Origin: Bolinopsis microptera
Lineage: Eukaryota
Length of the DNA stretch: 64,000 bases
NCBI RefSeq assembly: GCF_026151205.1
Contig: NC_087073.1
Coordinates: forward strand, 10,266,636 to 10,330,635
Direction of reading: 5' to 3'
Below are positions 8,458-49,636 of this stretch, in pieces; position 1 is the stretch's first letter; each line of letters opens with the position of its first letter. The translations under genes and the position numbers were made by a program. Below the pieces are notes generated by a model. That model saw only the letters and a list, made by a program, of their open reading frames with translations. It was not told the origin of the DNA and did not search any database.

Positions 8458-9823
8458 GGGGGGGGGGGGGGGGGGGGGGGGGGGCCAATGGCATAAATGG
8501 AGAAAATGGAGAATTACTCATGGGTTTTTCCATTTTCTCCATAGAAATAGTCTCCATTTTATGCCATTTTATGCCATTTTATGCCATTTTATGCCATTTT
8601 ATGCCATGGAAAACCTGAAAAATTTAGAATTTCGAGAAAAATTATTAAAAAAAAAGATATTTTCGGCCAATAATGAACAGAGTATCATGAAACATGGAGA
8701 AAAGTGGTTTTCAGAAAAACTTTGAAAGATGTTGACTTAAAAAATGTTCGGTCCGAGTCATTTACGAAACGTACCTCCCGTATCGAGAGCTCCCGATTCC
8801 GAGCTCGTGTTGCAAAGGGGAGGCCTATCTTCCGAGATCGCATTTCCTCGAGTCCAAAATTGTGTATCGAGGGGAAGGTGTGGACTTCGAAAAACCGAAA
8901 AAATATTTTCGGCAAATAATGAACAGAGTAGCATGAAACGTGGAGAAAAGTGGTTTTCAGAAAAACTTTGAAAAATTTTGACCGAAAAAATATTTTCGGC
9001 TTATAATGAACAAGGTAGCATGAAACGTGGAGAAAAGTGTTTTTCAGAAAAACTTTGAAAAATGTTGACTTAAAAAATTACCCCTCGCTCGGTACACAAT
9101 TTTGGACTCGAGGCTTCCCCCTGGTAATGCGATCTCGGAAGGCAGGCCTCCCCTTTGCAACACGAGCTCGGAATCAGGAGCTCTCGATACGAGAGGTACG
9201 TATCGAGAATGACTCGGGCCGAAAATTTTCCAAGTCAAAATTTTTCAAAGTTTTTCTAAAAACCACTTTTCTCCACGTTTCATGCTACCCTCTTCATTAT
9301 GAGCCGAAAATATTTTTTGGTTTTTCGGTTTATCGAAGTCTGCACCTACCCCTCGATACACAAATTTGGACTCGAGGCTTCCCCCTGGTAATGCGATCTC
9401 GGAAGGCAGGGCTCCCCTTTGCAGTGCGAGCTTGTTTCGACTGTCGAGGATGTAGGTCTCACTTCTCAGTGCCTATTACTCTCCCCTATTACTCACTCCT
9501 GCTGTAGCCTGTAGAAATAACTTTACACTAGGCTTGAGTGATTATGAGTTTGCCTGAAGTGTGCCTCTACTAACCTAGTATAAGCATCTAGTAGCCTACT
9601 ATGAGCTTTCATAAGCTTGTTACGCCCCTAGTAAGCGTAAATAAACATGTTAGGATGTCCAATTTAGGTGTTAAATGGTATTAAAGATGAAATTTCGAAG
9701 ACAAAATTCATGGCATAAAATGGAGAAAATGGAGAATTACTCATGGGTTTTTCCATTTTCTCAATAGAAAAAGTCTCCATTTTATGCCATTTTATGCCAT
9801 TTTATGCCATTGGCCCCCCCCCC
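8458..9823. mobile_element. Foldback-type DNA element with homopolymer termini (G27 ... C10), inserted into the LINE RT ORF. Element A of the polyG/polyC-capped family.
   Basis: G run at 8458-8484 and C run at 9814-9823. Inverted subterminal blocks CCAATGGCATAAATGGAGAAAATGGAGAATTACTCATGGG... mirror ...CCATTTTATGCCATTGG. (TTTATGCCAT)n tandem copies sit at both ends. Internally there are ~75-bp tandem units and a long inverted repeat (8760-8880 versus 9090-9200). The 8-bp direct repeat GGAATATT appears at 8450-8457 and 9824-9831. Confidence 0.7.
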
Positions 9824-9831
9824 GGAATATT

Positions 9832-11181
9832 ATGATATACAACCTCCCAGTATCATTCATCCAGACACTAGAGGCTCTTTGTACCAGATACTTGAAGAAA
9901 TGGCTTGGAGTTACTACTTCCATATCGAATAGTGTGCTGTACAGATCAAAAGACCACTTTGGACTATCGTTAAAGCAGATCTCCAACCTGTACAAATGTC
10001 TACAGGTGTCCAAGGCCTATATGCTGAAGACATCGGTTGACCCCAAAGTGAGGGAGGTTTTCGAGTACAGAGAAAACACCAACAGAGACAAGAAGAGATG
10101 GGACTACACCAAGGAGCTGACTAATAGGGAGAGAGACCTCTACTTCAAAGAACTGATTGGCTACGTGCAGACCAGGGAAGGAGCCGGTATTGGATTCGGT
10201 GATCAGAGGAGGAAGAAGAACAAAAAGGAGCAACTGGTGGAGATAATTAAGTCTCTGAAAGAAGAGGAGCTCCTTCAAACTCTCTACGATAAGAGAGTCC
10301 AAGGAAAGTTTCTAACCTGGGAGAACACCATGCAGCTAGACACTGGCTGGCAAAGCCTGCTGTATACCTTGAGCCCTGAGCTGACAAAGTTCCACCTAAA
10401 TGCCATCCACGACGTTGCAAGTACACCTAGCAACCTCCAGCTTTGGAACTACAGCTCCACGAACAACTGTCCCCTCTGTGGGCGTCAGCAGTGCAACCTA
10501 AAGCACATTCTAACGTGTTGCCCAGTGTCGCTTAAACAAGGAAGATATAATTGGAGACATGATCAGGTGCTCAGGGTTATCGTGCAACCAATTGCAGAGA
10601 AGCTGAGGGAGACAAACAGTGCTACCCCAAAGACAGAAGTGAAGAGAGAGTGGAGGAAGTTCGTATCCGGAAAAGGAACCTACAGGAAACCCGAAGTACG
10701 GCTTACAGAAGAACCTCATCTTCTAGAGGAAGGTAACGACTGGAAACTAGTGTTTGATGAGGACGAAAGGACAAGACAATTCCCCCAACATATTGTCAAC
10801 ACAGCTCTCAGACCTGATGTGGTAATATACTCTAACACACTCAGGAAAGTCATCCTGATAGAGCTGACCTGTGGAAACGAGGAGAACTTTGAGGACCAGA
10901 GATCCCGGAAAGAGAAGAGATACGAAGAGCTAATGGTGGAGATCGAGACCGCAGGCTGGGAAGGATATCTCTTTACAGTAGAAGTTGGATGTCGTGGATT
11001 CTACCACCACACATTACCCCGAATTTTCAACTTCCTTAACATCACCCGGGCAAAGAAGAAGAGGGCACTTAACACAACAGCGGTGGTGTCCCTGAAAGGT
11101 TCCTACACTATCTGGCTTAGTCGCTACAACAAGACCTGGAGTGACAACTGGCAGCTGGCCGAAAGACCCTGCCCAGTTTAA
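9832..11181 (+). CDS. LINE ORF C-terminal part: RT thumb, CCHC zinc knuckle and restriction-like endonuclease
   Basis: ORF 9784-11181. The frame is continuous with 7255-8457 when 8458-9831 is excised: cag tgg aat att | atg ata tac reads QWNI|MIYNL. Confidence 0.7.
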   Translation: MIYNLPVSFIQTLEALCTRYLKKWLGVTTSISNSVLYRSKDHFGLSLKQISNLYKCLQVSKAYMLKTSVDPKVREVFEYRENTNRDKKRWDYTKELTNRERDLYFKELIGYVQTREGAGIGFGDQRRKKNKKEQLVEIIKSLKEEELLQTLYDKRVQGKFLTWENTMQLDTGWQSLLYTLSPELTKFHLNAIHDVASTPSNLQLWNYSSTNNCPLCGRQQCNLKHILTCCPVSLKQGRYNWRHDQVLRVIVQPIAEKLRETNSATPKTEVKREWRKFVSGKGTYRKPEVRLTEEPHLLEEGNDWKLVFDEDERTRQFPQHIVNTALRPDVVIYSNTLRKVILIELTCGNEENFEDQRSRKEKRYEELMVEIETAGWEGYLFTVEVGCRGFYHHTLPRIFNFLNITRAKKKRALNTTAVVSLKGSYTIWLSRYNKTWSDNWQLAERPCPV

Positions 11182-12325
11182 TCCTGATGAACAGCTGAAC
11201 GTTGGGCCCTTAAAACGTCGTTGAAAGCTACATCTGGGGTCGTAAGTCCCAGACATCAGAAGAAGTCAGAGAGTGTAGAAGATTCTGCGTCTGAAAAGAC
11301 TAGAGAATTGAGGTAAATATAGTTGGTTTGGTCCCATAACTTTTATATAAGAGGGTCATTTCGGACTCGATGCAAACTCTCGATGAATCTTCTGGAACTA
11401 CAGTTATACGTAATTCGAAAATTTTATGTCCGAGGAAGCTTGAAAGCTTGGAAAATTGTAATTGAATTTGAATACGGACTATGTTGTAGGTTTATAACCT
11501 ACCAGGACGCGCGCCGAGTATGGAACAAATATTTTACGAGTATCACACGTTAAGGTCTATGTAATCCAACTCACCTATTATGGTACTGATACCAGCTTTT
11601 TCAAGGAAGTCTAAATAAAATCCGGAGGGATACACTCGGGTCATATATACGACGCACTGTCCAAGGCAAGCAAAGATCACTATTGTCATCATATGAAATG
11701 TTGTCATTTCTGCAAATTTTATGGTTAATAAATAATAACATAATCTCAAACTTTTATCATTTTGAATTTTAAGTCACCGTACTAATGAAGTCACCGGAAT
11801 AACGAGGATTTATACTTTCGTGAGCGGTAAAAAAACAAAAAATAAACATTTACCCTCCAAACGTTCCTCGTCATCTGATGTCACCGGTTTGTCGTCATCG
11901 TTCCCTTCTGAAGTATCACCAAAAGCAATAATTTCCAACGTCTGGCTAGGGTCTGAAACTATGATTTATCGTCAGCTTATCGTTAAATTTCTTCGAATTG
12001 CAAATGGAAGCACCATTTGCTATTATATTTAAAAAGTAACGATTCAACCCTTACTTAACCGGAAAAAAGCAAGTAACGTGAACATTTTCAATTTTTCTAA
12101 TCATATTATGTTTTGTTTCGAGCAGATTCACTTCCAGAATTATCGAAGTCCTCAATGTTCAAAACAGAATTCGCTATGACCAAGTTTTCGTTTAAAATGT
12201 TTCTGTCTGAAAATGACTCTAAAGTCTAATGATAAAAATGCAAATGTTACTCTAATGATTTAGCCCATTCTCCATGAAGCAGCAGTATGTGGGCGCTAAA
12301 ATAATGTAGGAATCTTGACAGGAGA

Positions 12326-12721
12326 GGTCACTGGTCACTGGTCACTGGTCACTGGTCACTGGTCACTGGTCACTGGTCACTGGTCACTGGTCACTGGTCA
12401 CTGGTCACTGGTCACTGGTCACTGGTCACTGGTCACTGGTCACTGGTCACTGGTCACTGGTCACTGGTCACTGGTCACTGGTCACTGGTCACTGGTCACT
12501 GGTCACTGGTCACTGGTCACTGGTCACTGGTCACTGGTCACTGGTCACTGGTCACTGGTCACTGGTCACTGGTCACTGGTCACTGGTCACTGGTCACTGG
12601 TCACTGGTCACTGGTCACTGGTCACTGGTCACTGGTCACTGGTCACTGGTCACTGGTCACTGGTCACTGGTCACTGGTCACTGGTCACTGGTCACTGGTC
12701 ACTGTGCACTGGTCACTGGTC
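12326..12721. repeat. Microsatellite (TGGTCAC)n, about 56 copies
   Basis: A perfect 7-mer tandem array is directly visible. It sits inside a ~120-bp flanking duplication (12140-12300 versus 12850-12960). Confidence 0.95.
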
Positions 12722-13220
12722 AAAGGATCAGGGTGTTGTCAAATCATAGAATTTAATCTATGTTTTATCTAAAACTCGATAAATCAAAATCGGCAAAACA
12801 AACATGTAGCATGTATAATTAAAAATGTATATTCACTCACAGTCCTCAACGTTCAAAACAGGATTTGCTATGACCAAGTTTTCGTCTAAGATTTCTTCTG
12901 TCATGACTCAAATGATAGAATGTAGCCGATTCTCTGTAAAGCAGCAGTTCTTCGTCAACAGGAAAAAACAGAAATTAGAAGAGTAAAATCTTTTGATTTT
13001 TAGTAGTTTAAATTCTGTTTAATATTCATATCCATGGGAAATTTATTTCGTTTATAACTATGTCTATTCCCTCTCAGACGGTTATTTAGTGGTCATGGTA
13101 TTTTGTGGCCGAGCAGTAGCAGTACTGCCAGTACGTTACTTTTGAAGACCCAATGACCACTCATGCTGTCAACCATTATTTTGTATTTTAAACTATCCAT
13201 TTTTCCCAGCTACCCGCTAC

Positions 13221-17680: not shown

Positions 17681-17740
17681 CAACCCTTGGTGCGTCGTGT
17701 CGTAGAGCTAATCGTCGATTACAACAGACCGAGCAACTGC

Positions 17741-18095
17741 AATGTGCTGCATTGTGCTGCATTGTGCTGCATTGTGCTGCATTATGATTCATTGTGCTCT
17801 TTGTGATTCATGGTGCTGCATTGTGATGCATTGTGATTCATTGTGATTCATTATGATTCATTGTGCTCTTTGTGATTCATGGTGCTGCATTGTGATGCAT
17901 TGTGATTCATTGTGATTCATTATGATTCATTGTGATTCATTATGATTCATTGTGCTCTTTGTGATTCATGGTGCTGCATTGTGATGCATTGTGATTCATT
18001 GTGCTGCATTGTGCTGCATTGTGCTGCAATGTGCAGCAATGTGCTGCAATGTGCTGCAATGTGCTGCAATGTGCTGCATTGTGGTGCCACTGCAT
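17741..18095. repeat. Minisatellite, 10-bp unit CATTGTGCTG with variants (CATTGTGATT, CATTATGATT)
   Basis: About 35 tandem 10-mers are directly visible. The antisense and sense poly-HCAA / CNVL ORFs (17940-18230) are artefacts of this array. Confidence 0.9.
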
Positions 18096-19508: not shown

Positions 19509-19730
19509 TAGGTGAGGTGTTTAAATCAATATGCTTATATCATGGATTGAATATCTACAGCTTGCTTTAGGTAACAGTAGCTTGCTGATTGTGTTTAAAA
19601 CCTCTCTTTGCTAGATTGGCAAAAATCAAAACCATTGACGGATGATACGTGTCTACATTTTTTCGGACAAAGCGCTGCGAAGTAGTGCACGCCGGGTCAG
19701 TCCATGCCATTAACGATGAACAAACTGCAA

Positions 19731-20185: not shown

Positions 20186-23100
20186 ATCAATTTGGTTTGG
20201 ACACATAGTAAGACAGCACAAATATAGGTGAATTCTTCGTATATTTACATCTCTAGCCTATAAAAATAAAATTAGGTTAGACTAATGAAAGCAATTTAAA
20301 AGTTAACAACTTGAAAATTCAAAACAGATTTTAATCTGAAACTTTACTAAAGAGCTCAATGTGCTAGGTAGAATGGACAACAGAGCATAACAGATTATTC
20401 AGCGAGTAACTACAATCCTATTTAACCCAAAAATATTAGTTCTAAATTTTGAAATAAGAATGCTCTCTTCTCTATCAAGTTCTGTTGGTCGGACTTTTCT
20501 TACTACACCTAATTTAAAAACTCCCATAGTGAAATCAGATTTATGCGCTAGAAAACAATGCATGGAAAGTGCCGACTTCTCAAATGACAATTCATTATCA
20601 ATTTTAAACTTGTTTCTGTGTCCATTCATTCTGATATGAAATGGAGAAACCGTTTGGCCGAAATAGGTATCGTCTTTTAGGCTCTGGGGAAGTTTATTAC
20701 AAATTTGGCATTGGGCGACATAAATTATATTGCTGTCCTTACATGTCAACCGGAAATCCAGAGTTAAATCCAAACCATTGACAGTGATAACTTCGTTGGA
20801 GTTGAACAGTTGGGGACAGGTTGCACAGCCTCTCCCCCCACAGTTTTGGCTTACGGTGAAAGAATCCGTTTCGGAGCACGAACTGAGTTTTCTATTGCGC
20901 ACTACTGTGTTGCCTATAGATGGCTGTTTACGTAGTGCAAACAATATCTGTACGTCTCCGCATAATTGTTTGATGTCCTCACTAGTAGAGTGTACCAACT
21001 TCCTAAGTTCAGTGACCTCTTTGAAAAATTTCACTGAAAAGACAACTTTGTCAGTGATTGGCTTCTTTTCTTCCCTCTCATACAAATCGTGTTCTATTGA
21101 CCTCAAGACTGCTTCAGGCTCTGTTTCCGTTAAGGTCCCCTCCTTGTGTCCACTTTTCATTAGGTCTTCTTTAAGTTCCTCCAGGTCCTCCACACAGGTG
21201 TGATCCTGCGAATTTCGCTTGATCACTCGGATCATCTGTGAGAATACTACTGATTTAAAGACGTGGTTTGGGTGGAAACTATCAGTATTAAGGTAAAGCC
21301 TGGCATCAGTCTCTTTCTTAAATAGTCTGTAGTCGATGTTGTTGTTCTCCCCCAGGGAGAGTTCTACATCCAAGTAGTTAACTGATTTGCCAAACTGACA
21401 ATCACCGAACTGAATTCCAAATCGTTTTGCGGCTTCATTTAGTTTCGACACAAAAAGATCAAATTGCCTCCTGGAGCCCTTCCAAATTCCAAAGACATCG
21501 TCGATGAAGCGTCGCCAGAATAAAATAAGACTCCATAGCTGTATCATTTCAGGCCAGATGTTGATGAATAGCACCCAATGAAGCATGATATCAGCGACTT
21601 GACGCGAAATACAATTTCCAGTTGGGATACCCTTTTTGCCTGTGTACACATTTTCTTGAAAAGTGACAAAGGAGTTTGTGAAGATAGTCTCCGTGAATGT
21701 TTTCAGAATAGCCTTTCGTTTATCAATCATAGTACTACCGTTCAGGGCATGTTCCAATGCAGACATAGCTATTTCAGGTTTTATGCTTGGATACAGACTG
21801 ATCACGTCTAAAGTAAACAAGTTGATGGTGCTATATTTTGACATGTCTGCAGATTCATTAAGGTTTTTTATGTTACTGAGAAGGTCTGGTGTATCCAGGA
21901 GAAACTCCTGTTGGCAATAAATCCTACTTACATCTGTTAGGTATGGGCTAACCCACTTTTCTAGCCTGTAAAGGGGGCCTTCCTTAGTGGCATGGACAAG
22001 CCTGGTAGGGGGAACTATTTTCCCCTCAATCTGTTGTGGACTTAATTTATGCAGCTTAAATAAAGGGTACACATAAGGGACTACTGGTTTGAATACATGT
22101 GCATGCATTTGGTTATTATTTTCATTAAGTCCAGTAATGAGTTTCTTGTCTTTTTCTGTGATTTTCCCCTCTGATAAAGCCAGAAGAACTGCATCCTTAA
22201 CATTATTCTTCACATCTGTCATTTTCTCTTCAACTGACATTTGGGAATGAGCAAAGTTATCTCTGTCTCCTAAGTTCCTTTGAACACATTCCACAGCTTC
22301 CTTATAGTCAAGAATCAAGGTCGATCCTCCTTTGTCAGCTTTGGTGACAAAGATGTTCTCATCTTCTATATTTTTCAAAATCCATCTCTTCCCTCTCCTC
22401 TCTGCTGGTGTCAGGTTAGACTTCGGGTCAGCAGGCATGAAGCTGTTTACGAAACCCATCAGTTTTGTTTTTATTTCATCAAAGAGCGGGTTGCTGTACT
22501 CAGGATGCCTTCTTGAAGGTATCCTTAAGCCAGGATGTTCGTCTTCGTTGAAACTATTGTTCTCAGTTGGGTTATCATGAAAGAACGCCGTCCATGAAAC
22601 TTTACGTAAGAACTCTTTGGTGTCATACTGAAGGTCTTCCTTACTTGCCTTTTTACTTTCCACAAAGTTCAAGCCTTTGGCCAGATACAAAAATGCTATA
22701 TCGGGGACTTCTACATGGGACAGATTTCTCACAACTGTGGACGATATCTCCTTGACTCTCTGTTCCAACCATAACTTTTTCCGGTTCTGCTTGTTTTTCT
22801 GGTAGCGTTTGCGCCCGGCCTTCTTCTTTTCGGCAGATGCTTTTCTCCACTTCTTGCGTTTGGAATTTGAAGAAGGAGGGTTGGCTTCTGTTCCCTGTTT
22901 GTTGAGATGAAACTGAATTTTCTTTTGGTGGGTTTTCCTGATGCGCTCACGAACCTTTTCAGCCTTGTTTTGAAGGGATTGCAAAGTTGGTCCGGAATCT
23001 TCAACAAGTTTAAGCAGTTTGCTAAACTGTTGGCCCAGCTTAACAATATCTCGATTAGCCTCGACAACTGAACACTCCTTGAGAATGCGTAATCTTGCAT

Positions 23101-28454: not shown

Positions 28455-28519
28455 GAAAAGGCCCTTTGGGCATAAAAAGTGATCTGGATGGGTGTATTTT
28501 TGGACGCTGATTCCGAATC

Positions 28520-29394: not shown

Positions 29395-29760
29395 GCAGCG
29401 TGGCCCAGTTGCTAATTGTCCATTGTTAATGGACTAGCCCGGCGCGCGCTACTTTATACCGCTACTTTATAGCACTTACTTGCCGTTGGCCTTGACCATT
29501 GGTAATGGTCTGGCCCGGCGCGCTACTTCGTAGCACGTGCCATCGGGCCATAACATTTCGAGAAGAAAGCGGCGCGCGCTACTTTGACGGATGTTACTCG
29601 TCTAAATTGCTTGACGGATGTTACTCGTCTAAATTTCTTCGAAGTAGCGCGCGCCGCTTTTTTCTCGAAATGGCCCGGTGGCAAGTGCTACGAAGTAGCG
29701 CGCGCCGAGCCAGATCATTAACAATGGTCAAGCGCTACCTCGAAAAAATTTAGACGAGTC
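29395..29760. repeat. GC-rich compound palindrome (nested inverted repeats)
   Basis: Repeated CCGGCGCGCGCTACTT / AAGTAGCGCGCGCCG(G) arms lie around a centre near 29620, where TTGACGGATGTTACTCGTCTAAAT occurs twice. The outer arms GGCCCAGTTGCTAATTGTCCATTGTTAATGG and CCAGATCATTAACAATGGTC are also inverted. Confidence 0.6.
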
Positions 29761-30995: not shown

Positions 30996-31027
<32 letters not shown>

Positions 31028-32443: not shown

Positions 32444-35325
32444 ATGGCTGAAATCCTGGATGAAGATATTCTAGCCAATATATACTCTGAAGCCAAGAAA
32501 TGCGAAGAAGATGGGTTTTTAGATGAAGCACTCTCACTTTACCAAGACGCATTCAATCTCCGAGAATCAGAGTTTTCAAAACTAGCTATTGATAGACTGT
32601 CAGATATGATAAATACTAAATTGGCTTCTAACTTTGATGCATCACTTCATCTCAAAGCATCTCCACGCTTCCAGTCTACCCCATACTCCACTCAAGTAGA
32701 TGATGTAGCTTTAAATGGACCATCTGTTTACGGTGGTTCAAGGACAACACCTGTAAGATCAGTCTTAAAGAATAAGAACTTGAACATAAGTGGTATTAGT
32801 CAGCCAAACAATATGACAATAGCAGTACAAGAAGGTGAACAATCATTTGATGCTGGCCATTACAACAACCTCATAATTGAAGCTCGCTCACTTTATAAGA
32901 ACAGCAAGCAGCTTGAGAAAGCCCTTGAAAAATACAATGAAGCTTATTCCTTACACCAAGATGCAAAATTGTACAAACGGATACTAAAAATTAACCAAGA
33001 GCTAAAATTAAAGCAGGTTCAGACATATGTTGAAACGTCAGCAAAAGAATCAGAATCTGATAAGGAGGACCTGATCGATCAATATAACAACCTTGTTATC
33101 AATGCTAAAGCTTGCTTAGAATCTGACAGAGCAGATGAAGCTCTTCGACTATATCAAGAGGCTTACAAGGTTGACCCTTCTGAAAAACTTCTTCAAAAGA
33201 TAACTAAATTAGAAGAGGAATTAGCTCCGGCTGATAACAGCACTAGTGTAGACGTCGAGCAATACAACAATCTTATCAAGGAAGCAAAAGCAAAGCTGAA
33301 GGAGGAAGACTATGAAGGTGCCCTTTTGAAGTATGAAAATGCAAATGAGATTAATCCTACGGAGAAGCTGCAAAAGAGAATAGACAAGATCAAAGACTTC
33401 ATTGAAAATGATGATGAAGAAGATGATGATGATGATAATTATGAGCAGGTCACTCCAACAAATGATCCTTATCCATCAAACGATCAAGATTTGAATAAGT
33501 CTGTTGTTAAATCTGAGGTTGATGAACATTGCAATAGCTTGGTTAAGAATGCTCAAATTTGGGAGGGGAAAGATATGTTGAGTGAAGCATTAGATGCATA
33601 CAGAGAAGCTCAAAATTTAAAGCCCTGTCCTTATTTTGTTCAGAAGATCAACGATTTAGAAAAGAAGCTTGTTATCAATGATAACAATGAAAATGATGAT
33701 GAATCTGAGCTAAATGTTGAACATTATAATCAGCTCATTATCCAAGGAAGGGAGCATCTTAATGATGGCAATTTGTCAAAAGCTTTAGAAGCTTACAATG
33801 AGGCGCATAATCTGAATCCCTCTGAAAAGCTTTCAAAGAGGATCACAAAAATCGAACAAAAGTTGTCTGCTGAATTAGAAAAGGAGGATGAAGAACCGGA
33901 GATAGATGATGAAATCAGGGATTATTATGAAGCTACCATTGCAGACGCCAAGAACAAGGAAGACAAACTTCTGTACGATGAGGCAATCGCTCTTTATGAA
34001 GAAGCTCATGAACTGATTCCAAGTGACAACATCTCCCAAAAAATTGCTAGTTTGGAATTTAAAAGGGACTCCGAAAGAGATCCTCAAGATCACAAGCCAT
34101 CTTCAGTACAGAGCCTCAATGATCTATCGGCTGATGACAAAGCAAAGTACAATGAGTTGATAGTCAAAGGGAAATATGCTCAGAAAGAGTCAAAAATTGA
34201 AAAGGCTCTCAGTTATTACAAAAAGGCTGCTCAAATTTATAAGAATGAGAAACTGGGTACTAGAATACAGAAACTGGAAACGTTTTTGAAAGAGGAAGCT
34301 GAGAACGAAAATCTCTACACGGATATTGGTGATGGCCTTTTCCTTACAAATGATATCCACGACAAATTGTATCAATACCAGAGGGAAGGTGTGAAATGGA
34401 TGTGGGAGCTTTATCGAGCTGAGCATGGTGGCATTCTTGGAGATGATATGGGTCTTGGTAAAACGATTCAAACAATAGCTTACTTGCAAGCCCTGTTTCT
34501 GATGGAGGAAATTTCGACAGCCATGCTGTGTATGCCTCTGTCACTTATCAATAACTGGCAGGTAGAATTCAAAAAATGGGCTCCAGAAATCCGTGTTGAA
34601 TTGTTTCATGGCTCAAAGAATGAAAGAGAAAGAAATGTTAAGAAAGTCATCAAAAGAGGGGGTGTTATCTTGACGACTTACGGGATTATCGAGAAAAATG
34701 TAGAGTTCTTGGTTAACACCTCGTTCAAGTGGGACTATCTTGTGCTGGATGAGGGTCACAAAATCAAAAATCCCACCAAAACCAGTAAAGCTATGAGAAA
34801 TGTGCCGTGTAATCATAGGCTCCTTATTTCTGGTACACCTATTCAGAATAATTTAAAAGAACTTTGGGCTTTGTTCGACTTCGTGTCCAGAGGTAAACTT
34901 TTGGGAACCATGACAACTTTTAAGATGAACTATATAACACCTATCGAAAGAGGTAGAGAAAAAGATGCCTCCAAAGGGGAAGCTAAACTTGGAGCTAAAC
35001 TTGCAGAAAATCTCAGAAAGGTGATTGACCCCTATTTCTTGCGTCGGACAAAGGCTGAAATCAAGAAAAACGGCAATGATGCCTCCAGCGGAGTAAGCAA
35101 GCTTGGAAAAAAGAACGAGCTGTGTGTCTGGCTCCAGCTGTCAAATGTGCAACTCAACCTCTACAAAGCTTTTTTGACTCTCGATTCAGTTCGGGATGCA
35201 ATGAACTCTTCTAAATCCCCACTCGCTGCACTTACTGTTTTAAAGAAGATATGTGATCATCCCAGACTTGCTACCAAGTTTGAGGCTCTACGAGAAGTTA
35301 TGGATGCAGAAAGTATGAGCATGAA
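32444..35325 (+). CDS. ERCC6L: ERCC6L/PICH-like SNF2-family DNA translocase, coding exon 1. N-terminal TPR-like repeat array plus SNF2 ATPase N-lobe.
   Basis: ATG at 32444, with the splice acceptor tttgttttag just upstream at 32423-32432. Seven or eight ~50-aa repeats of the form [HQ]YNNLIxxA...AL..Y.EA..L.PSEKL.KRI.KIE, then a DEGH-box helicase region: LYQYQREGVKWMWELY...GGILGDDMGLGKT...LVLDEGHKIKN...LLISGTPIQNNLKELWALFDF. Donor ATGAA|GTAAGT. Confidence 0.8.
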
Positions 35326-35442
35326 GTAAGTTTTAAAAGTTAGAGAAAGGAAATTAGTCTAGTTGTGTTGTACTTTCTTGTGACTTTGACTTTCGAGTTA
35401 ATACTCGTGATGTTAATAAATCTGTTAACTCAATTATTTCAG

Positions 35443-36959: not shown

Positions 36960-37980
36960 GTAAGATCCCTTCTGTTTAATACGGTCAGAATTAGTTGTTC
37001 AAACTTACCGCCCCCTATAAAATGTATCTCAGATCAATAAAAATTTGTGTCATCAGACTTGAACTCTTTTGAAGGATCAACAAGAATTGTTCTTGAACTG
37101 TCACAATAACACTTGAACTGTCACAATAACACTGTCACAATAACACTGTCAAAATCACTGCATTATGTAGCGCGCGAACGCCTAACCTCTTAATTGTTGA
37201 TTCGCGCGAAATTCAAAATCTTAAATTTATTTAAATTATTAGCTCATCGCATCGCGCGCGTCGACCTTATCACATGTTAATATGATATATGATATAATTA
37301 CGTTATGACTTTATGAGTTCAGCCATACATGTCATGTCGGTTGTGATTTGTGAAAATAGGAAACACCTGGATAAGAATAGGATCACATCGAATCACCAAG
37401 TGTATAATGACTGATGAGTCACGACTCCAGCTAGTTTTTCTAGCTTCAGGGGAGGTACAGCTTTTCAGAAGGACGATTTCTGCGATTTCAATCAGATAGG
37501 ATATCTCGGATTTTATCAATCCTTACGCCGATCCGGCTCCCCTGACCCCTAGGATACAGCTGAGCGGCGATAGGATGTGTAAGTTCCGAGAGGCGATAGG
37601 ATTCGCTCTCGGACCCGATAGGAAACGTAAAACCTATCGGATCCGAGCGCTAATCCTAGCGGAGAAATGATTTAACGATTCTGGTCATGCTGTACAGCAT
37701 GACCAGATGGCGAACTCACCTGCTTGCCAAATTGCTTTAATTGTGGTCTGAAGTAAGTACTGGGTTCCTGGATAGGGTTCTCAGTATGGTCGCAGGCTCT
37801 AATCTCATTCGACAGCAGGCTACTGTAACTGATCAAAACGAAAGTCTAGAGAACACCTGAACGTTGCCGCGATTTTCACGAAGTTGTCACACACTGTTTA
37901 AATCACTCGATTACCGTGTATGATAAATTAATTACAGGTATCCGATACAGTTCGACTCCATTTAATGGATGTATTTGCAG

Positions 37981-39187
37981 GTACAACAAGCGAAAAGGCA
38001 CATGGCTGCTGAAGCAGCGGCAGCTGGACCAGTTCCGTTCCCTAACTACACAGCCCCTAATCGCAACACACACAACCCTAACCCAGGAGCTACTGCTGTG
38101 CCACTAGGTGGGGGAATGAGAGCACCTTGGGAGCCTACTAGAGGGCACAGTATGTGGAATAATAAGGAGGCGGAAGTTGAGGCTGTTCGTAAAGATATCG
38201 AGAGGGTCGAGATAAGAGCTAGAGAGTCTCCTTATTTCAAAGAATCGGAGGGCAGGACAGCAGAGGTCATAACAATTGACGATGATGATGATGAAAACGA
38301 AGTTCAAGTCAAGGAGACTAAAGAAGCGAAGAAACTTTCATTGACTGATTACAAAAACAGACAGATGAAGATATTCGATTATGTCGACAGTCCGACCCAA
38401 GAATCTCGTGAAATCCCAAGTAGTCCTACCTTCAAAAGCCCAAGTAGTCCTACCTTCAAAAGCCCAAGTAGTCCTACCTTCAAAAGCCCGGTCAGGCCAA
38501 GAAGGTCCATCAAGAAGAACGTGGTTACACCTAGGAAATCGCTCAGTAATCCAGTGGGTCAGATAATCGCTAACCATATCCAGAACACTCCTAAAAAGAA
38601 GTCTGCATATAGTGACGATGAAGTTGAAGATGATCTGGAGAATTCCAGGTATGACAACCTGAACAAGCCGCCTTGTTTGGACGATTCTGAAGATGAGGAT
38701 GATTATTATGATGGTCAAGAAGAGCAAGAAGCAGATGAAGAACACGAACAAGAATCCAAAGAGGAGCAAGCGGCCGATGTTGATGACGATGAAGAATATG
38801 ACGAAGAGGAAGAAGAGGAAGAAGAGGATGAAGAGGAAGAAGTCGTAGAAGTCGTAGAAGTGGAAGAAAAGGTTGATGATCTAGAAGGCTTAGTCAAGAG
38901 CTTAAAGTTCAACTCGCCTCACAGCTCGGATCAGCCAGCTAATCAGCAAATTGAAAAGACTACGGAGATCAATCGGAGACCACCCTTGGAGCCCAAAAAC
39001 CTCTTAACTGAGAAACTCAAAACACAGGCCACAGAATCTGAAGTTAGAACTCCAAACCTTCATCAACTTGACCCTCGGCAACAAGATCAGTCCAAGTCAC
39101 AGCCGAGAAAAGAGGAAAAGTCAAAAAGAAGTTCAAAAGTCGACAAAGAGAACAAACAACCGGCCTCATCTAAATCCTCCAACTCAG
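37981..39187 (+). CDS. ERCC6L: ERCC6L-like large C-terminal exon: low-complexity acidic region, three tandem SSPTFKSP motifs, K/S-rich tail. The 3' boundary is tentative; the ORF runs to 39315.
   Basis: Acceptor tatttgcag at 37980, in frame with exon 6. Long ORF 37969-39315 with D/E-rich stretches (DDDDENEV, EEEEEEEDEEEEVVEVVEVEE). Candidate donor CAG|GTTTTT at 39187. Confidence 0.5.
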
Positions 39188-39332
39188 GTTTTTACAGGCT
39201 ACAGAGTTTTATATCTTCAGTTTGTTTTACAGAACAAAGGTCAGCTACCTTTATCTTGAACTTCAATTACAATTTAAAATTTAAGAACCTAAAATTCTGT
39301 ACTACATTTGAATAATTTCATTTTCAATTCAG

Positions 39333-41285: not shown

Positions 41286-43334
41286 CGGTCCTGAAGTCGA
41301 GAATTGAATATCAGCTAACTTCACCTATCATTGATTCCTAACTTCCTGTTGATTGGAGAGCGAACTTATTTACATAGTGCTGTTTCCTGACAGTGTATTC
41401 TAGTGGGAGGTGAAGCATATTTTTGGCACGTGCAGTGATCTGGGGGACGGGGTTTGACTGGTCAATAGTGGTAGATGATTGGTTTATTGCTGTCACGTGT
41501 CAAAACGATATACCTGACCTCCCCACCATGCATCAGAATCCACGTCTATATTTAATCAAAGCAAAATATTTTTCCAGTTAATCAAATCAAAACATGAAAA
41601 AAGAAGTGTAACAAAAAGATTAAATTATGACATTACTGGCCCCATAACAACTGTGCGAACAATTTAAAGAACTTGTAAACTTGTGTTACTTGTCATGGTG
41701 CATCAAACACCACCACCCCGGTTCAGTACGGATTTAATGGGGGATGCGGGGAGTAATACTGGACCATGTTATGTGAACTGTGGTCTGCACTCATATTAGT
41801 GTGGTGGAAGACATCACATCGTATTTGTTTTGATAATGATACTGAAACAGTTGGGGGGGGGGGGGGGGGGGCGTCCAACCCGATTTCCGATATGAGGGTT
41901 GATGAGGCCAAAATCGGAATCGGAAAAATAGGAAAATTGAGAAATTTACTGAATCGATCTCTAAAACCTCTCAGAAGTGATATAATTTAACCAGAACCCC
42001 TACATATGCTATGTATGCTATATGAAAACGAACCAATTGTACATTCCAATAGTATGTTTTATGTGTATTCCCATTTCCCACTGCATGCATGATGCAGGGG
42101 CTAGTATGCTCACTACTAGTTGGAGTTATCATGTACTCCCAGACCCGAGTGCTTTGGTCTCTTGTGAGATCGATTGTTTCTGCTCATTGATTCTATCCCT
42201 GTTACTTGTTATTATGTATTAGTAGTAGTACAACACTGGGTACCGGGTTATATTTTGTGGTCCGGTCTTTAAACATACCATAATATCACTATACTTAGTA
42301 TACTGCACCTTAAGGCCACAGGGGGGGGGGGGGGGTCGAGGCCTCAAAAAATGCAAAAAAATATTATGCTTTGAATTAATATATATTTTTGTGGCGGATA
42401 CTTTGCCACCACTCATTTGTCTGTAGCTATTTTACTTTTTTTAATAAATGAGGTTAACCAATTCTTCCGAAATTGGCTATGCAATATTGAGGGTAACGAA
42501 ATTGATGCCTAGAATTGATTTCATGCCAAGATATTTTGTTGTTTCGATCAACAAATAATGAATCCTAATTCTGTTTCGCAATTGGTTGAAAATGAAGGAC
42601 CCAAAGTGGGTAAAAACGAGGTTAACCTCTTATTTCATTGATATCGAGAAGGACTGAGATGAAAGTTATCATCATTCATAAAGTAAGTTCAGTGCATTTT
42701 AATTTCAAAACGTATCTCGTACTAATGTATTACTTCAAATCTACAGAAAATCTAAAAAATGAGGTTAACCAGGTAAATTGTGACCACTATAAAACATACA
42801 TAATTGTCTAATTTTTAATCGAACTCAAGACATTAGTAAGTTATATATTTGCTGGGAAGATTGATCACGAGAAAAATATGATTTGAAACAACTATTCCTT
42901 GCAAGCAATATTGACCATTAACATACGATAAAATGAGGTTAACCAACTTATTTCAATTTGTAATACAGCAACTTTAATGGAACCTTAATAGCGGTTAACC
43001 TCACATTTGAATATCAGTTAACCTCAAATTTGCATCATTAATATGCAGTACTTGCAGGAAATGGTGTTTCAGGGATTTAATCTCCTTAAGTGTATCAAAA
43101 ACTACAGTATATAACATATGGAACTACAAATACAAGCCATACCATGTGTTTAGTGACTAAAGTTAACCTCATTTTTTTGATGAATCGATGATGGAGGGCA
43201 GAAATATTGATGCCATTACAACTGAAAACTACTATTAGTTTTGTTTTTATAGTTTTTGTGTTATATCAGCAGTTAAACTTTGAGAAATATACAAATAAAG
43301 GCAAAATACTCAAAAATCACAAAACATAAAAAAC

Positions 43335-44566
43335 TAGGCTATCCATTATCGGTATGAAATCTTTTATCTAGATAAACAGATAAAGATTTAGGTTTTATCT
43401 AGATAAAACCGATAAAACCGATAATTTTTCTGCTGAAGGCCAAAGCCTAAATGTTTTCCAAATTTCGCAAAAACTAATTGTCGACTTTTATTACTGTTTA
43501 CCAGTAATCTTGCTAAAGTACCACTTCCTTTCTTTTGAAAATATTAGAGCATCAGTTTTCTTCTCCGGGGAGCAGAAGTGCACCAGTTTTCTTCAAAACA
43601 GTAGACCAACGGTTTTCTTCGCCTAAGAACAGTAGTGTACTACCAGTTCTCTTCAAAACAGTAGACCAACGGTTTCTTCTCCTGAGAACAGTAGTGCACC
43701 AGTTCTCTTCAAAACAGTAGACCATGAACGGTTTCCTTCTCCTGAGAACAGTAGTGCACCAGTTCTCTTCAAAACAGTAGACCAAGGGTTTCCTTCTCCT
43801 GAGAACAGTAGTGCACCTGTTCTCTTCAAAACATTATCTGACCAAGGGTTTCCTTCTCCTGAGAACAGTAGTGTACTACCAGTTCTCTTCAAAACAGTAG
43901 ACCAACGGTTCTCTTCTCCTAAGAACAGTAGTGCACCAGTTCTCTTCAAAACAGTAGACCATGAACGGTTTCCTTCTCCTGAGAACAGTAGTGCACCAAA
44001 TACCAATTCTCCTCGAAACAGTAAAGCATTTAAAGTGATTCAGTGAACCGTTTTCTTATCCTGTTGATAACTTGGAGCAACAGATTCCTACTCCTGAAGA
44101 CAATGTTTCACGCCCAGAACACTTACGGAATTCAATTGAGTGCCCTGCCGGTATTTTTGACTCTCGTTAACAGTAACATGCTCGTTCCCGTCTCCAGAAT
44201 GATTATAAGGTAAAACGCCAGCACTCTCAAGAGAACAATGTCAATAACCTTCTCTGGATTTCAACAGTTCATACAGTTCTACAGTTCCAAAGGTATACAA
44301 ATGTAAATAAACCTCTTAAGCTCACATCTAAGTAAACTACCTCTTCTATCATACTAGAAGACGTTTGGGACTGTTTCTTGGATTACTTAGGAAGGCAAAA
44401 ACACTGATATTTCTTTACAATTTTACGGTATTGTGGAAGTATTTTCGGTAATATCTAGTGAATTTTTATACCGATAACAATATGTTTTATCTAGATAAAC
44501 AGATAACTTTTTTTAACGAATTATCGGATATAATTATCGGTTACGATTATCGGAGTGGATAGCCTA
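43335..44566. mobile_element. hAT-like MITE with an 8-bp TSD, nested in D. Element E.
   Basis: TIR TAGGCTATCCATTATCGG ... CCGATAATCGTAACCGATAATTATATCCGATAA...GGATAGCCTA. Subterminal TTTATCTAGATAAACAGATAA occurs in both arms. Perfect 8-bp direct repeat TAAAAAAC at 43327-43334 and 44567-44574. Confidence 0.65.
43535..44010. repeat. Minisatellite, ~56-bp unit x ~8, inside element E
   Basis: Unit agttctcttcaaaacagtagaccaacggtttcttctcctgagaacagtagtgcacc. The ORFs 43552-43785 and 43653-44006 are artefacts of this array. Confidence 0.9.
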
Positions 44567-45381
44567 TAAAAAACAGTTTTTTGCCTCTCCTGAAAACCTC
44601 GAATTTTAGACTTTAAAATCTATCTTCTCCTAGAGCTTTTATCCAATTCACCTCAAATTTGGAACATACGTTCCTGACATAAATTTAAAAGTTTGTTATG
44701 TAACGATTGTTGTAATTTTGCTCCTAACTCTTTTTATGAGGTTAACCGTTTTAAATTTTGTAACCCGTACTTATGGTTAACCTCATATCTCAGCTTTGGA
44801 GCAAGATATCAAAAATCGTTACATAACAAAAACTCAAAATACCTTGAAAAACATTTTTGCCAAGTTACAAGGTTCTAAGTCGTAAACTGTAAAAGAAGAT
44901 AGATTTTGAACACGATTTCATTTAAAGTTTTCATTTACAATAGAATTACAGGTAAACCTCAAAATTCAACGCGCGATATCTTCAAATAGGAAAGTTTGTT
45001 TTCAGTAAGGACAAAAGCATTTGAAAATTTAGATCGAGCTCTACAACATATCTCAAAATCTCAAAATTGACCTCGGACCCCCCCCCTGTGGCCTTAAATG
45101 TATAGTCAAGTACGTTTGTAGCGTGATCGGTGGTACATGCTTGGCTTTAATAAACATGTCTGTAGGTACATATATAGTAAACTATATGGCAACACATAAC
45201 GGTCCATGGCAAGTTTAAATTATTATCTAATGTGCATCAGTATTGTATAATCCAGTGTCGAAAATTGTTTCTTCCATTCAATATAAAGTTTTGCTTTATT
45301 CTTTATTTATCGTCTCAATTTTGTACATTTTGTGTGGTTATTTTTTCTCAAATTAGTTTTGAAATTTCTTGTTCATTGTAA

Positions 45382-46531
45382 TTGATCAGTTTGTGCAGGG
45401 CGTTGGCCTCTGCTTTTCTGTTAATCTCAGAATTCTTTTCACTATATCTTCTTCCAGGTCTCATGCCAAAATATACTGATATGGTGGAGACACCTTCACC
45501 ACCTGGTATTACCAGTCAGAAAACAGCCCGATCAAACAAAATAGCAACCAGAAAACAGCCCCAGAATAAGGGCAACAAACTGAAGATAAAACTCCGTGGC
45601 CGTCTCATAAAGAAAGGAAAAGTTGAACAAAGCACCAACAAGAAACCTAAAGATTTATCCGAGAAGAAGGCACCAGATGTTGGCAGTGCATCCGGAAAAT
45701 CCAAGCTTAATCCTAGAAAGAAGAAAAGAATTGCTACGATATCATCAGACTCAGATTCAGAGGCAAATGTGCAGCTGAACAAGAAAAATGTAAAGGATTT
45801 GTCACAGCGCCAAAAACTTAAAGCTGTGACAAATCCTTTACATAAAGAGGAAGGACAAACAAGAATACAAACAGCGAAAGACTTTATGGCTATCGTTAAA
45901 ACAGCTAATTTCCTTGCTAAACTCGATAAAGACCCCACGTATTCAGATATAAGCAAAGTTTTTGCCAATTTTGATATGACCCTATCCAAAACTGTTATTG
46001 ATGATGTTTTCAAACGGCGTTTTACAAAAAAACCCAGTAAGAAACTCCATTTATTTATGAAAGGGGCAATTCATGGGTACCCCGAAAATCTTAATCGATT
46101 TCAGTATCGGCGAAAGCCGCAGAACAGACCTGTGTTGAAACCCACACCGGAGCCTGAGAAGACTACAAGAAAGTTTGAAAGTTTCAAAACTTGCAAAGAA
46201 GCACTCTGGACTTTCTTATGCAACAGTCTTTTCACTCGGCATTACTGCCATAGAAAAGTTTGGTCCTCACGTCCTTGATGACGATTATAAGTTGGAAGCT
46301 CTTGTAGAGGCAGAGCTATGCAAATGGAGGCAAGATAAACTTCTATTCTCATTCGGAAATCTCCCATCGGCTGAAAAGATAAGTGTGCCAGAGGCTGTCA
46401 CAGAAGTCAGCAACCTTCTCGTGATTAGACTTAAGACTACTGTAGATGAGCTCAACAATCCAGTCTCTCAGGGCTGCGGTTCAGATCAATCGGACGGTGA
46501 TCGTGTGTTTAATTTTTCATTTATAGAATGA
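45382..46531 (+). CDS. Lys-rich ORF pair (298 aa and 118 aa, separated by one apparent frameshift near 46180-46280) of unknown function, inside element C
   Basis: Long open frames reading KKGKVEQSTNKKPKDLSEKKAPD... and ...LEALVEAELCKWRQDKLLFSFGNLPSAEKISVPEAVTEVSNLLVIRLKTTVDELNN. No recognisable transposase motif (no DDE/BED signature seen). Confidence 0.25.
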
Positions 46532-48520
46532 TTTCAGTACTGACACTTTTTGACTAAACCCAGATTGCCGTGATCAGACATCGCATCAGCATGTGATTAT
46601 GGTGGTCAGCTTTTTTACTACATTAAATGAAATGGTACTGTAATCTGTATCATGTATATATTGCTCTGACCACACCTTTTTTAATGATTCATCAATTTGT
46701 TGTTCCATGCCAGTACAGTGGCATATTAGATTTGGTTTTTAAATATTTAGATTTTTAAGTATCTTATTAGATTTTATGTTGTTAAATTGGTTTTTTAAGT
46801 TATTAAATTGGTTGTTTGACTGACTTTTTTTGATTGTTTATTATGTTCTTGTTTAAATTGTTTAACTTTGAACTTTATTTACTGTAGATTTTTACAGCCA
46901 GTAACGGCAGTACGGGATTTTGATTATTAAATCTCTTTTTCAACCTTATAATCAAATATTTTAATCCATTGTTGATTGTTCTGTATTGACTTATTATATA
47001 TTTTCTAATTCGATATACATGATTTTTACTTTACACTGATGTTTCACTTGAATATTTGTGTCTCTTGATAACAATTACAATTTCTGCTGAAGATTGTTCT
47101 TTGATCTTAGAATCAATTTAAAACAAAATATTAAAAATTAACCATTACAGTGTGCACAGCTCAATTGAAGTTTCAAAATGCAATATAACATAAAGCCATT
47201 GTTACTATTTGGTTTGGGGTTCTGGGACCACCACCAATCAATTTCTTGTCATATTTAAGTACAGAAATAGCTACCTATATCGCCTAGAAACCTCAGAGGA
47301 AAGATTTAAATTTTCCCGATTTTCCCGATATAAGGGTTAATGATGAATGAGGCCAAAATCGGAATCGGAAAAATCGGGTTGGACCCCCCCCCCCCCCCCC
47401 CCCAACAGTTTAAAGAGTTTGGTCTCTGCACTACCCCGAAGACAAACTTTTAAAAATTTTACGAACCTTGATAGCATTCGCCATAATTATCAACAAGAAA
47501 CAAAACAGCTGGCAGAAAGAAGTAGAACTTCTCATATCAAACACATCTTAGCAAACAGCATGATACAAAGTATGTGATCACCTCGTGTCATAAACTGAAT
47601 TTTTACTATTAAGAGTTAATATTAAGTGATATTAAGAATTAAACTTTTTTTAATCTACCTGCAAATTCGATCTTATTATCCAGTACAGACTGCAGCAGGC
47701 CCTGCGTGTTACGGACGCGGTAAAGTTAAACACATTTAAATCAGAATCTGTTTTTCATTTTTAATGTTTTTAATGTCACCGCCTGGAATTATTTTGTACT
47801 ATGCAATCTTTATCTATTGTTAGAATTTGATTTGAACAAGATATAGTGACTATGATAATTTAAGATATTGATTGAATGCAGCTTATTGACGATCGTGCAG
47901 CTTATTGACGATCGTGAGGTAACGATGGTTGATTAAATTTAAATTCATCACGCTTGGCTTGAGAACGTTGAATATCCCTATTCACAAAATTGAAAATAAT
48001 ACATAAATTATTGAAAGGATTCTTAATCCTAAGATAAAGAATTCGATTAGATAGTTAGATATATCAAGCACATGAGTTTGCTTCAGTGATCAGTTCGTTG
48101 CAAATATTAAATTCGCCAAGTAACAGATCTTAAATTCATGTTGCAAAATTATAGGTTTCTAAACTAACTTTTTAATTACCTACATGGCGATTCGTGATTT
48201 ATTTATAACGATAATTTCACTTTCTTAAAGTTTAAATAAAAGATAATTCAATTTCTAATTTAAAGTGGGTAGAAATATTAAATCAAAAGTGTTTAACATT
48301 TTAATGTCCGATCAACCAATCGATGAATACATATCATTTAAATTGGGTAGGATTGCTATTTGAGTATTAGTATTAGCATTAGCAATTAGTGATTGGTCAA
48401 CTGCACAAGCCCATGTTTATTTATAGATTACCTTAATTCCCAAAAATTTGGGCGACAAAAAATTTGAGCGGGCCTCTCGCCCAAATTTTTTGCAGACCAA
48501 ATTAATTGCATAATAATTGC

Positions 48521-48625
48521 TGTACGGCAAGTTAAACAAGGATCTGAAACTACTAGGTTCCGTACAGACTCAACTCTGCACCCGTGTCAATATGTTCATT
48601 ATATGCAAGCCTCTTGATTTATAAT
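48521..48625. repeat. ~105-bp direct repeat, copy 1
   Basis: tgctgtacggcaagttaaacaaggatctgaaactactaggttccgtacagactcaactctgcacccgtgtcaatatgttcattatatgcaagcctcttgatttataa. Repeated at 48838-48945. Confidence 0.7.
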
Positions 48626-48837
48626 CACCGAGTCTAGTAATTGTTTAAGAGAGTTCTCTGGCAGTTACGAACCTCGAGAGACTGTGGGATACTGAAGGGA
48701 AAGGAAGCAGTTCTAACGAGCTCTTCTCAAACACAAGGATATATTCTTGTGAACTCGGCTAGTATATATGAAGCATTTGTCATGGAGTTGTAGAGGGAGT
48801 TATGTGCCTCGCCGGGCTAAAGTAGAGGATGACCTTG

Positions 48838-48945
48838 CTGTACGGCAAGTTAAACAAGGATCTGAAACTACTAGGTTCCGTACAGACTCAACTCTGCACC
48901 CGTGTCAATATGTTCATTATATGCAAGCCTCTTGATTTATAAATC
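48838..48945. repeat. ~105-bp direct repeat, copy 2
   Basis: Near-identical to 48521-48625. The spacer between them is ~215 bp. Confidence 0.7.
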
Positions 48946-49040
48946 TTTTCCGTCTGCTAAATTTTTTGCTAACCAAACTTTTGGCATTTGGCCTGTGGCC
49001 CTGAAATCTATAGAAAGATGGCTTTTTCTTCATATCCAAG

Positions 49041-49636
49041 CGGGGGGGGGGGGGGGGGGGGATCAGGTACCAAGTGCCGGACATCACGTCGACTAAGTGT
49101 AGTTTTGGATATTTTTCACTAGACCCACCCACCCCCTTTGCGGTACTAACTGTTTTTTTGGATAATACGTAAGACACCCACCCCTTTTGCCGCCTTTTGC
49201 GGTACTAACTGTCGAAAAATCGTGGTACTAACTGTTTTTTGGTATATAGAATAAGATACCCACCCATAAATTGCTTTAAACAGCTCATTAAACATTGGAA
49301 ATGGGAAAATTATACCCACTATTTAGTAGGGGTTTTGTTTTCAATGTCGTCGAATTAGCTAAAAAGTTACACAAAAAATTTTAAAATTACAAAAAACCCA
49401 AAAAAAAACTCAAAAAAACCTCAAAACCCATTCCCAAAATTGAAATTTGAGGTAAAATGGTTTTTTTTGGGGTTGGACACCCAAAAAATTAACCCCTTAG
49501 TACCATGTACTAATTGTTTTCCTGGAAAATGGGCAGTAGACCCACCAGTTAGTACCATGTACTAACTGTGTTTTTGGGAGAAAAAATGACCCACCCACCA
49601 CCGTCATGTCCGGTACTAAGTGTATGATCCCCCCCG
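49041..49636. mobile_element. ~600-bp MITE with homopolymer termini (CG20 ... C7G). Element F.
   Basis: CGGGGGGGGGGGGGGGGGGGGGATCAGGTACCAAGTGCCGGACAT at 49041 mirrors ATGTCCGGTACTAAGTGTATGATCCCCCCCG ending at 49636. Internal tandem CCCACCC...TTGCGGTACTAACTGTTTTTT units. Flanking direct repeat ATCCAAG at 49034-49040 and 49637-49643. Confidence 0.65.

Follow-up and report, generated by a model that had tools for sequence, protein, structure and literature searches.

Homopolymeric G/C runs at or near the ends of young MITE-type transposons in a ctenophore genome

A stretch of 64,000 nucleotides from the ctenophore Bolinopsis microptera (NCBI RefSeq assembly GCF_026151205.1, contig NC_087073.1, positions 10,266,636 to 10,330,635; here called the window, 64 kb in length and 38.4% G+C) carries five elements, A, B, C, D and F, that start on the forward strand with a long run of G and finish with a run of C, at or very near to their ends. 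The five are young non-autonomous cut-and-paste DNA transposons of a lobate-type ctenophore genome, similar to MITEs (miniature inverted-repeat transposable elements) and in one case a foldback; what sets them apart from ordinary transposons of the MITE type is an unusual homopolymer terminus, specific to the lineage, and their genome abounds in poly-G/C tracts. The most likely explanation is a combination of two known processes; we lean towards the view that the elements inherit the G run as the outer portion of their inverted repeat and that a lineage-wide instability of G/C tracts makes it hypervariable. A preliminary description of the window had already located the five elements and their runs, and all of its coordinates and lengths stand with the exception of the G run of D, which is 15 and not 17 nt long. 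The elements, with their terminal inverted repeats (TIRs) and target site duplications (TSDs), are as follows.

8458-9823, no strand assigned: element A, a non-autonomous TIR element, hAT-like by its 8-bp TSD; runs G27 (8458-8484) and C10 (9814-9823); TSD GGAATATT at 8450-8457 and 9824-9831, exact; TIR directly inside the run CCAATGGCATAAA
30996-32379, no strand assigned: element B, a TTAA-flanked foldback with Kolobok-like ends (5'-GG...CC-3'); runs G30 (30996-31025) and C11 (32369-32379), both outermost
41853-47403, no strand assigned: element C, a 5.5-kb TIR element that carries D, with the 7-bp TSD AACAGTT; runs G19 (41853-41871) and C20 (47384-47403), both outermost
42314-45093, no strand assigned: element D, nested in C and reading TTAA, GGCCACA, G15 ... 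C9, TGTGGCC, TTAA; runs G15 (42321-42335) and C9 (45078-45086), each 7 nt inside the end
43530-43998: a 60-nt tandem array within element D
49041-49636, no strand assigned: element F, a 596-bp MITE with ends C+G20 ... C7+G and the 7-bp TSD ATCCAAG; runs G20 (49042-49061) and C7 (49629-49635), 1 nt inside the end

Mononucleotide runs of G, C, A and T were counted across the whole window. G/C runs of at least 8 nt occur 12 times where about 0.2 would be expected at the composition of the window, and those of at least 15 nt eight times where the expectation is about 2e-6; only five A/T runs reach 8 nt. Among the G/C runs are the ten end runs, two to each element. In A, B and C the run lies directly against the TSD, and in all five elements the inverted ends start immediately inside the runs. 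The flanking duplications are exact in every case, as had been claimed (GGAATATT for A, TTAA for B and D, AACAGTT for C and ATCCAAG for F), and as judged from these sequences the five elements fall into at least three TSD classes, an 8-bp hAT-like, a TTAA Kolobok-like and a 7-bp class. Only B is a foldback, its 682-nt arms being 96% complementary and separated by a spacer of 1 nt. The interiors had been described as unrelated, and indeed BLAST among B, D, F and both halves of C found no mutual similarity; the five are not the single family that they had been taken for. Pfam scans found no transposase domain in the ORFs of any of the five elements, and the 298-aa open reading frame (ORF) of element C had no Pfam match and no homologue in a database search, which accordingly added neither a function nor another copy of C.

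The preliminary description had proposed that empty sites be sought, and these exist in a related locus. L001, a contig of assembly ERZ25073835 that encodes a 95% homologue of an SNF2/TPR ORF of the window, is collinear with the window from 30.2 to 51.7 kb at ~80-92% nucleotide identity. Element B is absent from it (~9938-9943), L001 reading ...CAATTATTGATAGTTTTTTAG where the window reads ...CAATTATTAA, then B, then TTAATGTTTTTTAG; C with the nested D is absent, the site reading GAAACAGTT-TAGTT-TAAAGAG; and window positions 48430-49931, the TA-flanked TIR element that hosts F, are likewise absent. No G/C run is found at the L001 empty sites of B, of C/D or of the host of F, where the flanks are contiguous, and the homopolymers therefore came in with the elements. 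The runs belong to the mobile DNA, for they are enclosed by the TSDs and the empty sites are without them. Since B, C, D and F are all missing from L001, they are younger than the split of the two genomes. In L001 the B site has TTGATA in place of TTAA, and an excision may have left the additional TAGTT as its footprint at the empty site of C (L001 19685-19705, AACAGTT-TAGTT-TAAAGAG), in which case this would not be a site that was never occupied.

Two further features of the window bear on the insertions.

7255-11181, + strand: a long interspersed nuclear element (LINE) ORF with RVT_1 and zf-RVT domains, interrupted by element A
48428-49896, no strand assigned: a TA-flanked TIR element of ~1.5 kb with the TIR CCTTAATTCCC..., without a G/C cap, within which F sits; absent from L001

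When A and 8 nt are deleted in silico an uninterrupted LINE frame of 850 aa results (7255-8457 joined to 9832-11181), and because the joined halves give an intact frame the LINE copy was probably young when A inserted. The inverted ends, the empty sites in L001 and the restored LINE frame bear out the earlier view of these elements as genuine TIR or foldback insertions; TIRs, family-specific TSDs and empty sites are together what is found of a cut-and-paste TIR transposon. The TA-flanked element is as young as the capped elements, because it too is absent from L001, and with its uncapped ends it is a natural negative control.

Related loci were sampled using the translated internal repeat of A as bait, which gave 273 matches, all of them in ctenophore-like assemblies of the ENA, and about 200 kb of such loci (numbered with an L) was taken. 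The interior of A (8647-9432) is made up of inverted and tandem copies of this repeat, which forms satellite-like arrays in L006, L009, L010, L014 and L015, with offsets of ~190-255 nt between BLAST matches, and which gene callers have called as ORFs (hence the 273 database "proteins"); L006 also holds 43 T runs of at least 8 nt. Further capped copies and termini were found in these loci.

L002: family A, runs G8 / C25, TSD GTCACGTT (8 bp)
L011: family A, runs G9 / C15, TSD TATCAGAC (8 bp)
L001: family X, G25-TGACACGTCCG...C7, TGTAAA on both sides (6 bp)
L008: family Y, TTAA and GGGGGCC followed by the run, G11 / C14, TTAA
L009: family Y, the same GGGGGCC tip, G6 / C18, TTAA (left flank TTAAA)
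L008:5906: family Z, G12-CATGATAATT... / ...TCCACCCCTCCCCC, TSD TATTATA (7 bp)
L008:19887: B-like terminus, G12
L003:13787: B-like terminus, GGAGGGGGATGGG
L010:4235: F-like terminus, G15
L003:7260: A-like terminus, G10-CAATG

Family A is thus known from three complete copies with runs of 27/10, 8/25 and 9/15 and three different 8-bp TSDs, a second copy of X terminates in C9, and in Y the same 7-nt tip GGGGGCC lies outside the run at both ends of each of the two independent copies. Scanning JGI metagenomes at the DNA level added two short contigs with A termini, G12 and G7CCG6. The phenomenon is therefore broader than the five elements of the window, with about ten capped families across three assemblies and two metagenome contigs, and the cap is a trait of the families. 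The run is present in every copy found and its polarity is always 5'-G; the length of the end runs spans 6-30 nt, varying about five-fold within a family, in line with the unequal and unstable lengths that had been noted for the window.

It is extremely improbable that the runs are artefacts of sequencing or assembly. Errors are common in long homopolymers, and near-identical contigs could differ partly through consensus error, but the same capped termini are common to four independent data sets, namely the window assembly, two ENA assemblies (~300x and ~19x) and the two JGI metagenome contigs, and the capped structure is therefore not an assembly artefact. Furthermore the runs lie exactly between TSD and TIR at both ends, and the empty sites are without them.

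The length of the TSD is fixed within a family and differs between families, being 8 bp in A, TTAA in B, D and Y, 7 bp in C, F and Z and 6 bp in X, and therefore more than one type of transposase is involved. This agrees with the earlier suggestion of a feature of the genome laid over more than one superfamily: the cap is found on unrelated families of different TSD classes and is a feature of the lineage. It could be supposed instead that all capped elements form one undescribed superfamily, the enzyme of which recognises homopolymer ends and leaves duplications of variable length, and an end architecture common to elements with unrelated interiors is what such an enzyme would give. This is nevertheless very improbable, as the TSD is fixed per family (8, 8 and 8 in A; TTAA in B, D and Y, with one of the four flanks of Y reading TTAAA) at 4, 6, 7 or 8 bp between families, specificity for TTAA is a property of particular transposases, and no candidate enzyme ORF is present in any element.

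The termini of piggyBac are 5'-CCY...RGG-3' (5'-CC...GG-3'), and whilst B and D share its TTAA duplication, the polarity of the ends of B, D and Y is the opposite. From their ends B, D and Y look Kolobok-like and not piggyBac-like, as B and D had been labelled, because TTAA together with 5'-GG...CC-3' ends matches the published signature of Kolobok, the termini of which are 5'-RR...YY-3', unlike those of piggyBac (PMC9587614). The 4-bp TTAA duplication is found in B, in D and twice in Y, and the termini read GG...CC in B, GGCCACA...TGTGGCC in D and GGGGGCC...GGCCCCC in Y. A long and variable G homopolymer at the tip or 7 nt from it, as seen here, is not mentioned in the Kolobok description (PMC9587614); B is in addition a foldback, and no Kolobok transposase was found in the ORFs of the elements or in the related loci.

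Family A is like hAT MITEs in its 8-bp TSD, which the preliminary description had proposed for the copy in the window and which is now seen in all three copies (GGAATATT, GTCACGTT, TATCAGAC). The terminal motif of hAT elements is 5'-YARNG, and a (C)CAATG that fits it is present in A but is not terminal, 8-27 G standing between the motif and the TSD. A search for autonomous partners had been recommended; none with the same TIRs, and no transposase bounded by capped ends, was found by Pfam scans of the long ORFs in ~250 kb of related loci. The one DNA transposase domain that the scans did find, in the related contig L007, was a hAT dimerisation domain, truncated and without a capped end close by; no autonomous partner is linked to A. 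P superfamily elements have 7-8-bp TSDs and 5'-CANRG termini; 7-bp duplications occur in C, F and Z, and CATGAT, a P-element-like end, only in Z, where it lies inside the run.

Long G/C runs in this lineage are not confined to transposon ends, and two further sets of them lie within repeats of the window.

28522-28552, + strand: a C31 run internal to an inverted repeat of the T family (element 28488-29011)
28974-28978: G5, in the partner arm of the C31 run
52457-52627, + strand: C15 (52457-52471) and C9 (52619-52627) inside another repeat

At this T-family site, GAATCA-C(n)-ATGAC, six further copies or arms have C4-C6, namely the partner arm of the C31 run, three in the window and those in L001 and L003, and the C31 at 28522 is thus an expansion in place. 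Similarly, a homologous repeat in L002 (1430-1740) has C6 at both of the sites that match C15 and C9 of the window. The contigs L004 and L005 share 99.4-99.8% identity over 14 kb; even so, six of the eight long runs differ between them by 1-13 nt (22/17, 46/36, 12/25, 17/20, 13/12 and 13/14). These runs are not at TIR ends but within a tandem unit of ~1.1 kb (L004 15750-19310 and L005 9390-14020), which has no TIR context and in which the longest G/C runs are C46 and C39. At one site L014 has C18 where L015 has C14. These results uphold the caveat, raised with the first account of the runs, that G/C tracts in general tend to expand here.

The same tendency is visible in the distribution of run lengths over 162 kb of non-redundant sequence, where the counts of G/C runs drop steeply to six at a length of 7 nt and then level off, the 29 runs of 8-46 nt forming a flat tail where ~0.5 would be expected when the expectations for each length are summed; A/T runs end at 10 nt save for one T28. 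A flat tail of this shape suggests expansion and contraction above a threshold length. Tracts of at least 18 nt occur about once per 15 kb in the 162 kb sampled, a biased sample. In L001 a G15 at 19634-19648 stands in the context GGGGGAA-G15-TCAGGCCATG, where the window at ~41745 may read GGGGGATGCGGGGAG...GGACCATG; this may be another change in place of a G-rich stretch (GGGGGATGCGGGGAG in the window), the alignment of window 41300-41900 with L001 being too divergent for a decision on orthology.

These two sets of observations can be joined as follows. A G homopolymer makes up the outermost, or nearly outermost, portion of the TIR in each family. It is probably handed on through transposition and not remade each time, and its length drifts fast, over ~6-30 nt and independently at the two ends, in a lineage that appears to expand and contract G/C mononucleotide runs once they are past ~7-8 nt. 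Polymerase slippage would be the cause of the changes in length, and the transposases would have to tolerate a variable run. A heritable run with such instability explains why the TSD lies beyond the run and why all copies have one, and it accounts for the subterminal runs of D, Y and F, the identity of the Y tip at four ends, the five-fold range in length and the uncapped TA-flanked element.

Several observations weigh against this account. Just inside the run come bases that resemble a canonical tip, (C)CAATG in A and at L003:7260 and CATGAT in Z; the run thus separates this apparent tip from the TSD, a place in which no base would be expected, and the cleavage point of DDE transposases is normally fixed. 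No end of any young copy has fewer than six G and none has a short seed, and the ~10 capped families are all 5'-G and none 5'-C. In L012, moreover, a chimera of A and B has its breakpoint precisely where the run of B ends on the inner side, which suggests that this inner edge is a real DNA end. Lastly, absolute run lengths and part of the differences between L004 and L005 could be long-read homopolymer error. The chimera itself (L012 is JGI contig Ga0115564_10189070) reads, on the reverse strand at 710-1080, G12, 35 nt of A terminus, 1 nt and then the B-family body, which begins exactly at the base following the G run of B, with no TTAA and no second run.

It is possible, though we think it unlikely, that the run is instead regenerated at each transposition, being made or lengthened at integration. 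This might happen where a gap-repair or strand-displacing polymerase slips on a terminal C template and the resulting G-rich 5' flap resists removal, or else through a terminal-transferase-like step; ends would then be born long, with random lengths, whatever the superfamily of the transposase. The canonical-looking tips (CAATG, CATGAT) just inside the run and the break in the L012 chimera at the inner edge of the run of B would both fit such a process, as would the 5'-G polarity throughout. Young copies are capped at both ends with lengths that are uncorrelated or opposite: in nine of the ten complete capped copies a short run of 6-11 nt at one end is paired with a long one of 14-30 nt at the other, a weak pattern in which the correlation between left and right run lengths is -0.62 (permutation P = 0.05; n = 10, from the window, L001, L002, L008, L009 and L011). 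In older copies the runs are interrupted as if decaying from a long state (CCCTCCC at L001:6266, GGAGGGGGATGGG in L003 and TCCACCCCTCCCCC in L008). Which end of A has the longer run differs between copies, and the long runs of the window follow no strand consistently; the direction of replication was considered as a cause of left runs longer than right ones, which fits A, B, D, F and X (L001), and was ruled out by C31, C20 and C15 on the + strand and by reversal elsewhere.

Regeneration has to contend, however, with the family-conserved 7-nt tip outside the run in D and Y and the 1 nt in F. With 7 nt or 1 nt of sequence beyond it, the run of these families cannot be just a tail added to the end, and with the Y tip the same at four ends and a young TA-flanked element uncapped, non-templated addition to the ends, in the form first put forward, is not supported. 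Internal runs expand without transposition, and the motif G(4+)-N(0-8)-C(4+) was found 17 times in a search of ~250 kb, where a back-of-envelope estimate would give ~10, with no instance flanked by a duplicated TSD. The transpososome would also be expected to hold the 3'-OH ends in the active site, with a templated repair gap, which would make non-templated addition awkward. A transposition-coupled origin is still to be entertained for those families in which the run is outermost. A more specific version is that a step at the level of the host, coupled to transposition (slippage in gap repair, with the 5' flap stabilised as a quadruplex, or a reaction like that of terminal transferase), makes or re-lengthens the 5' G tract on hAT-, P- and Kolobok-type elements, the cap then being no inherited portion of the element but a lineage-specific mark of each insertion, and a main source of dense quadruplex-prone poly-G tracts; this we regard as doubtful.

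G runs of at least 15 nt can in principle form intramolecular quadruplexes, and the cap may on these grounds be thought to be selected, superfamilies having converged on a quadruplex-prone 5' G tract which, with its free C strand, would aid the melting or cleavage of ends, mobilisation linked to replication or the recruitment of host factors. The likeness of ~10 unrelated families in the polarity of the run and its position at or near the tip is in keeping with this, as is the quadruplex potential of the longer runs. Selection is improbable all the same, given that length varies five-fold within a family, that equally long runs are found inside repeats with no TIR context (the 1.1-kb unit of L004 and L005, up to C46) and that mutational bias is enough by itself to explain why run lengths have a long tail.

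Turning back to the heritable but unstable run, its closest parallels are partial. The nearest are non-autonomous Kolobok, hAT and P elements, which agree in their TSDs and in the logic of their TIRs but for which a homopolymer cap is not described. Inverted ends that finish in a simple G/C-rich repeat are known from telomere-bearing elements of ciliates, TBE1 and Tel-1, which end in telomeric C4A4 of 5'-C polarity, and from protein-primed replicons of the PRD1 type, with 3'-CCCC reiterations of 3-4 nt and sliding-back priming. The likeness is one of analogy only, and these differ from the pure G tracts of 6-30 nt in chromosomal TSD-flanked insertions described here. C. elegans has ~400 tracts of at least 18 nt per 100 Mb, a density far sparser than that in our biased sample. 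An excess of long mono-G/C over expectation and over A/T is common to Caenorhabditis and to the present metazoan, and in C. elegans without DOG-1/FANCJ such poly-G/poly-C tracts are deleted (PMC2211496). Many of the tracts here are transposon termini, whereas a term search of that paper gave no mention of transposons or repeats (PMC2211496). A GC-rich loop-anchor motif of Mnemiopsis was also considered and set aside, as it contains CpGs and is not described as a homopolymer (PMC12221973). No description of homopolymer-capped TIRs was found for ctenophores or elsewhere in a literature library that is incomplete and does not cover Repbase.

The window holds several other features. An intronless ORF of 961 aa with TPR repeats and an SNF2-related helicase domain lies at 32444-35329, 65 nt downstream of B; it is 95% identical to a protein of an ENA assembly and 78% to one of Mnemiopsis leidyi, as befits a ctenophore that is a relative of Mnemiopsis but not the same, and its homologues in ctenophore-like assemblies are 61-95% identical. 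Neither a 970-aa ORF (20399-23311, - strand) nor a 448-aa ORF (37969-39315, + strand) has a Pfam match, the latter being conserved in L001, and these are possibly ctenophore-specific genes. There are micro- or minisatellite arrays of (GGTCACT) x 57 at 12326-12722 and (CTGCATTGTG) x 35 at 17737-18087, and a nested palindrome cluster with the cores GCGCGCTACTTCG and CGAAGTAGCGCGC at 29416-29762. Scans of the window for tRNA genes and Rfam families were empty.

The active site of a transposase normally fixes cleavage relative to the terminal bases, and a homopolymer of 6-30 nt that varies at or next to the tip across superfamilies would be a problem for this rule; if it is indeed so, either the enzymes can work with ends that vary, or the host remodels the ends in some step of its own. 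In practical terms the runs will break short-read assemblies and confuse the annotation of transposable elements, including the calling of TSDs and TIRs, and as markers they are likely to be highly polymorphic. Poly-G tracts, when long, are prone to quadruplex formation, and a ctenophore with tracts of at least 18 nt about once per 15 kb (in a biased sample), many of them seeded by mobile elements, would offer a natural system in which to follow how such tracts originate, spread and are tolerated.

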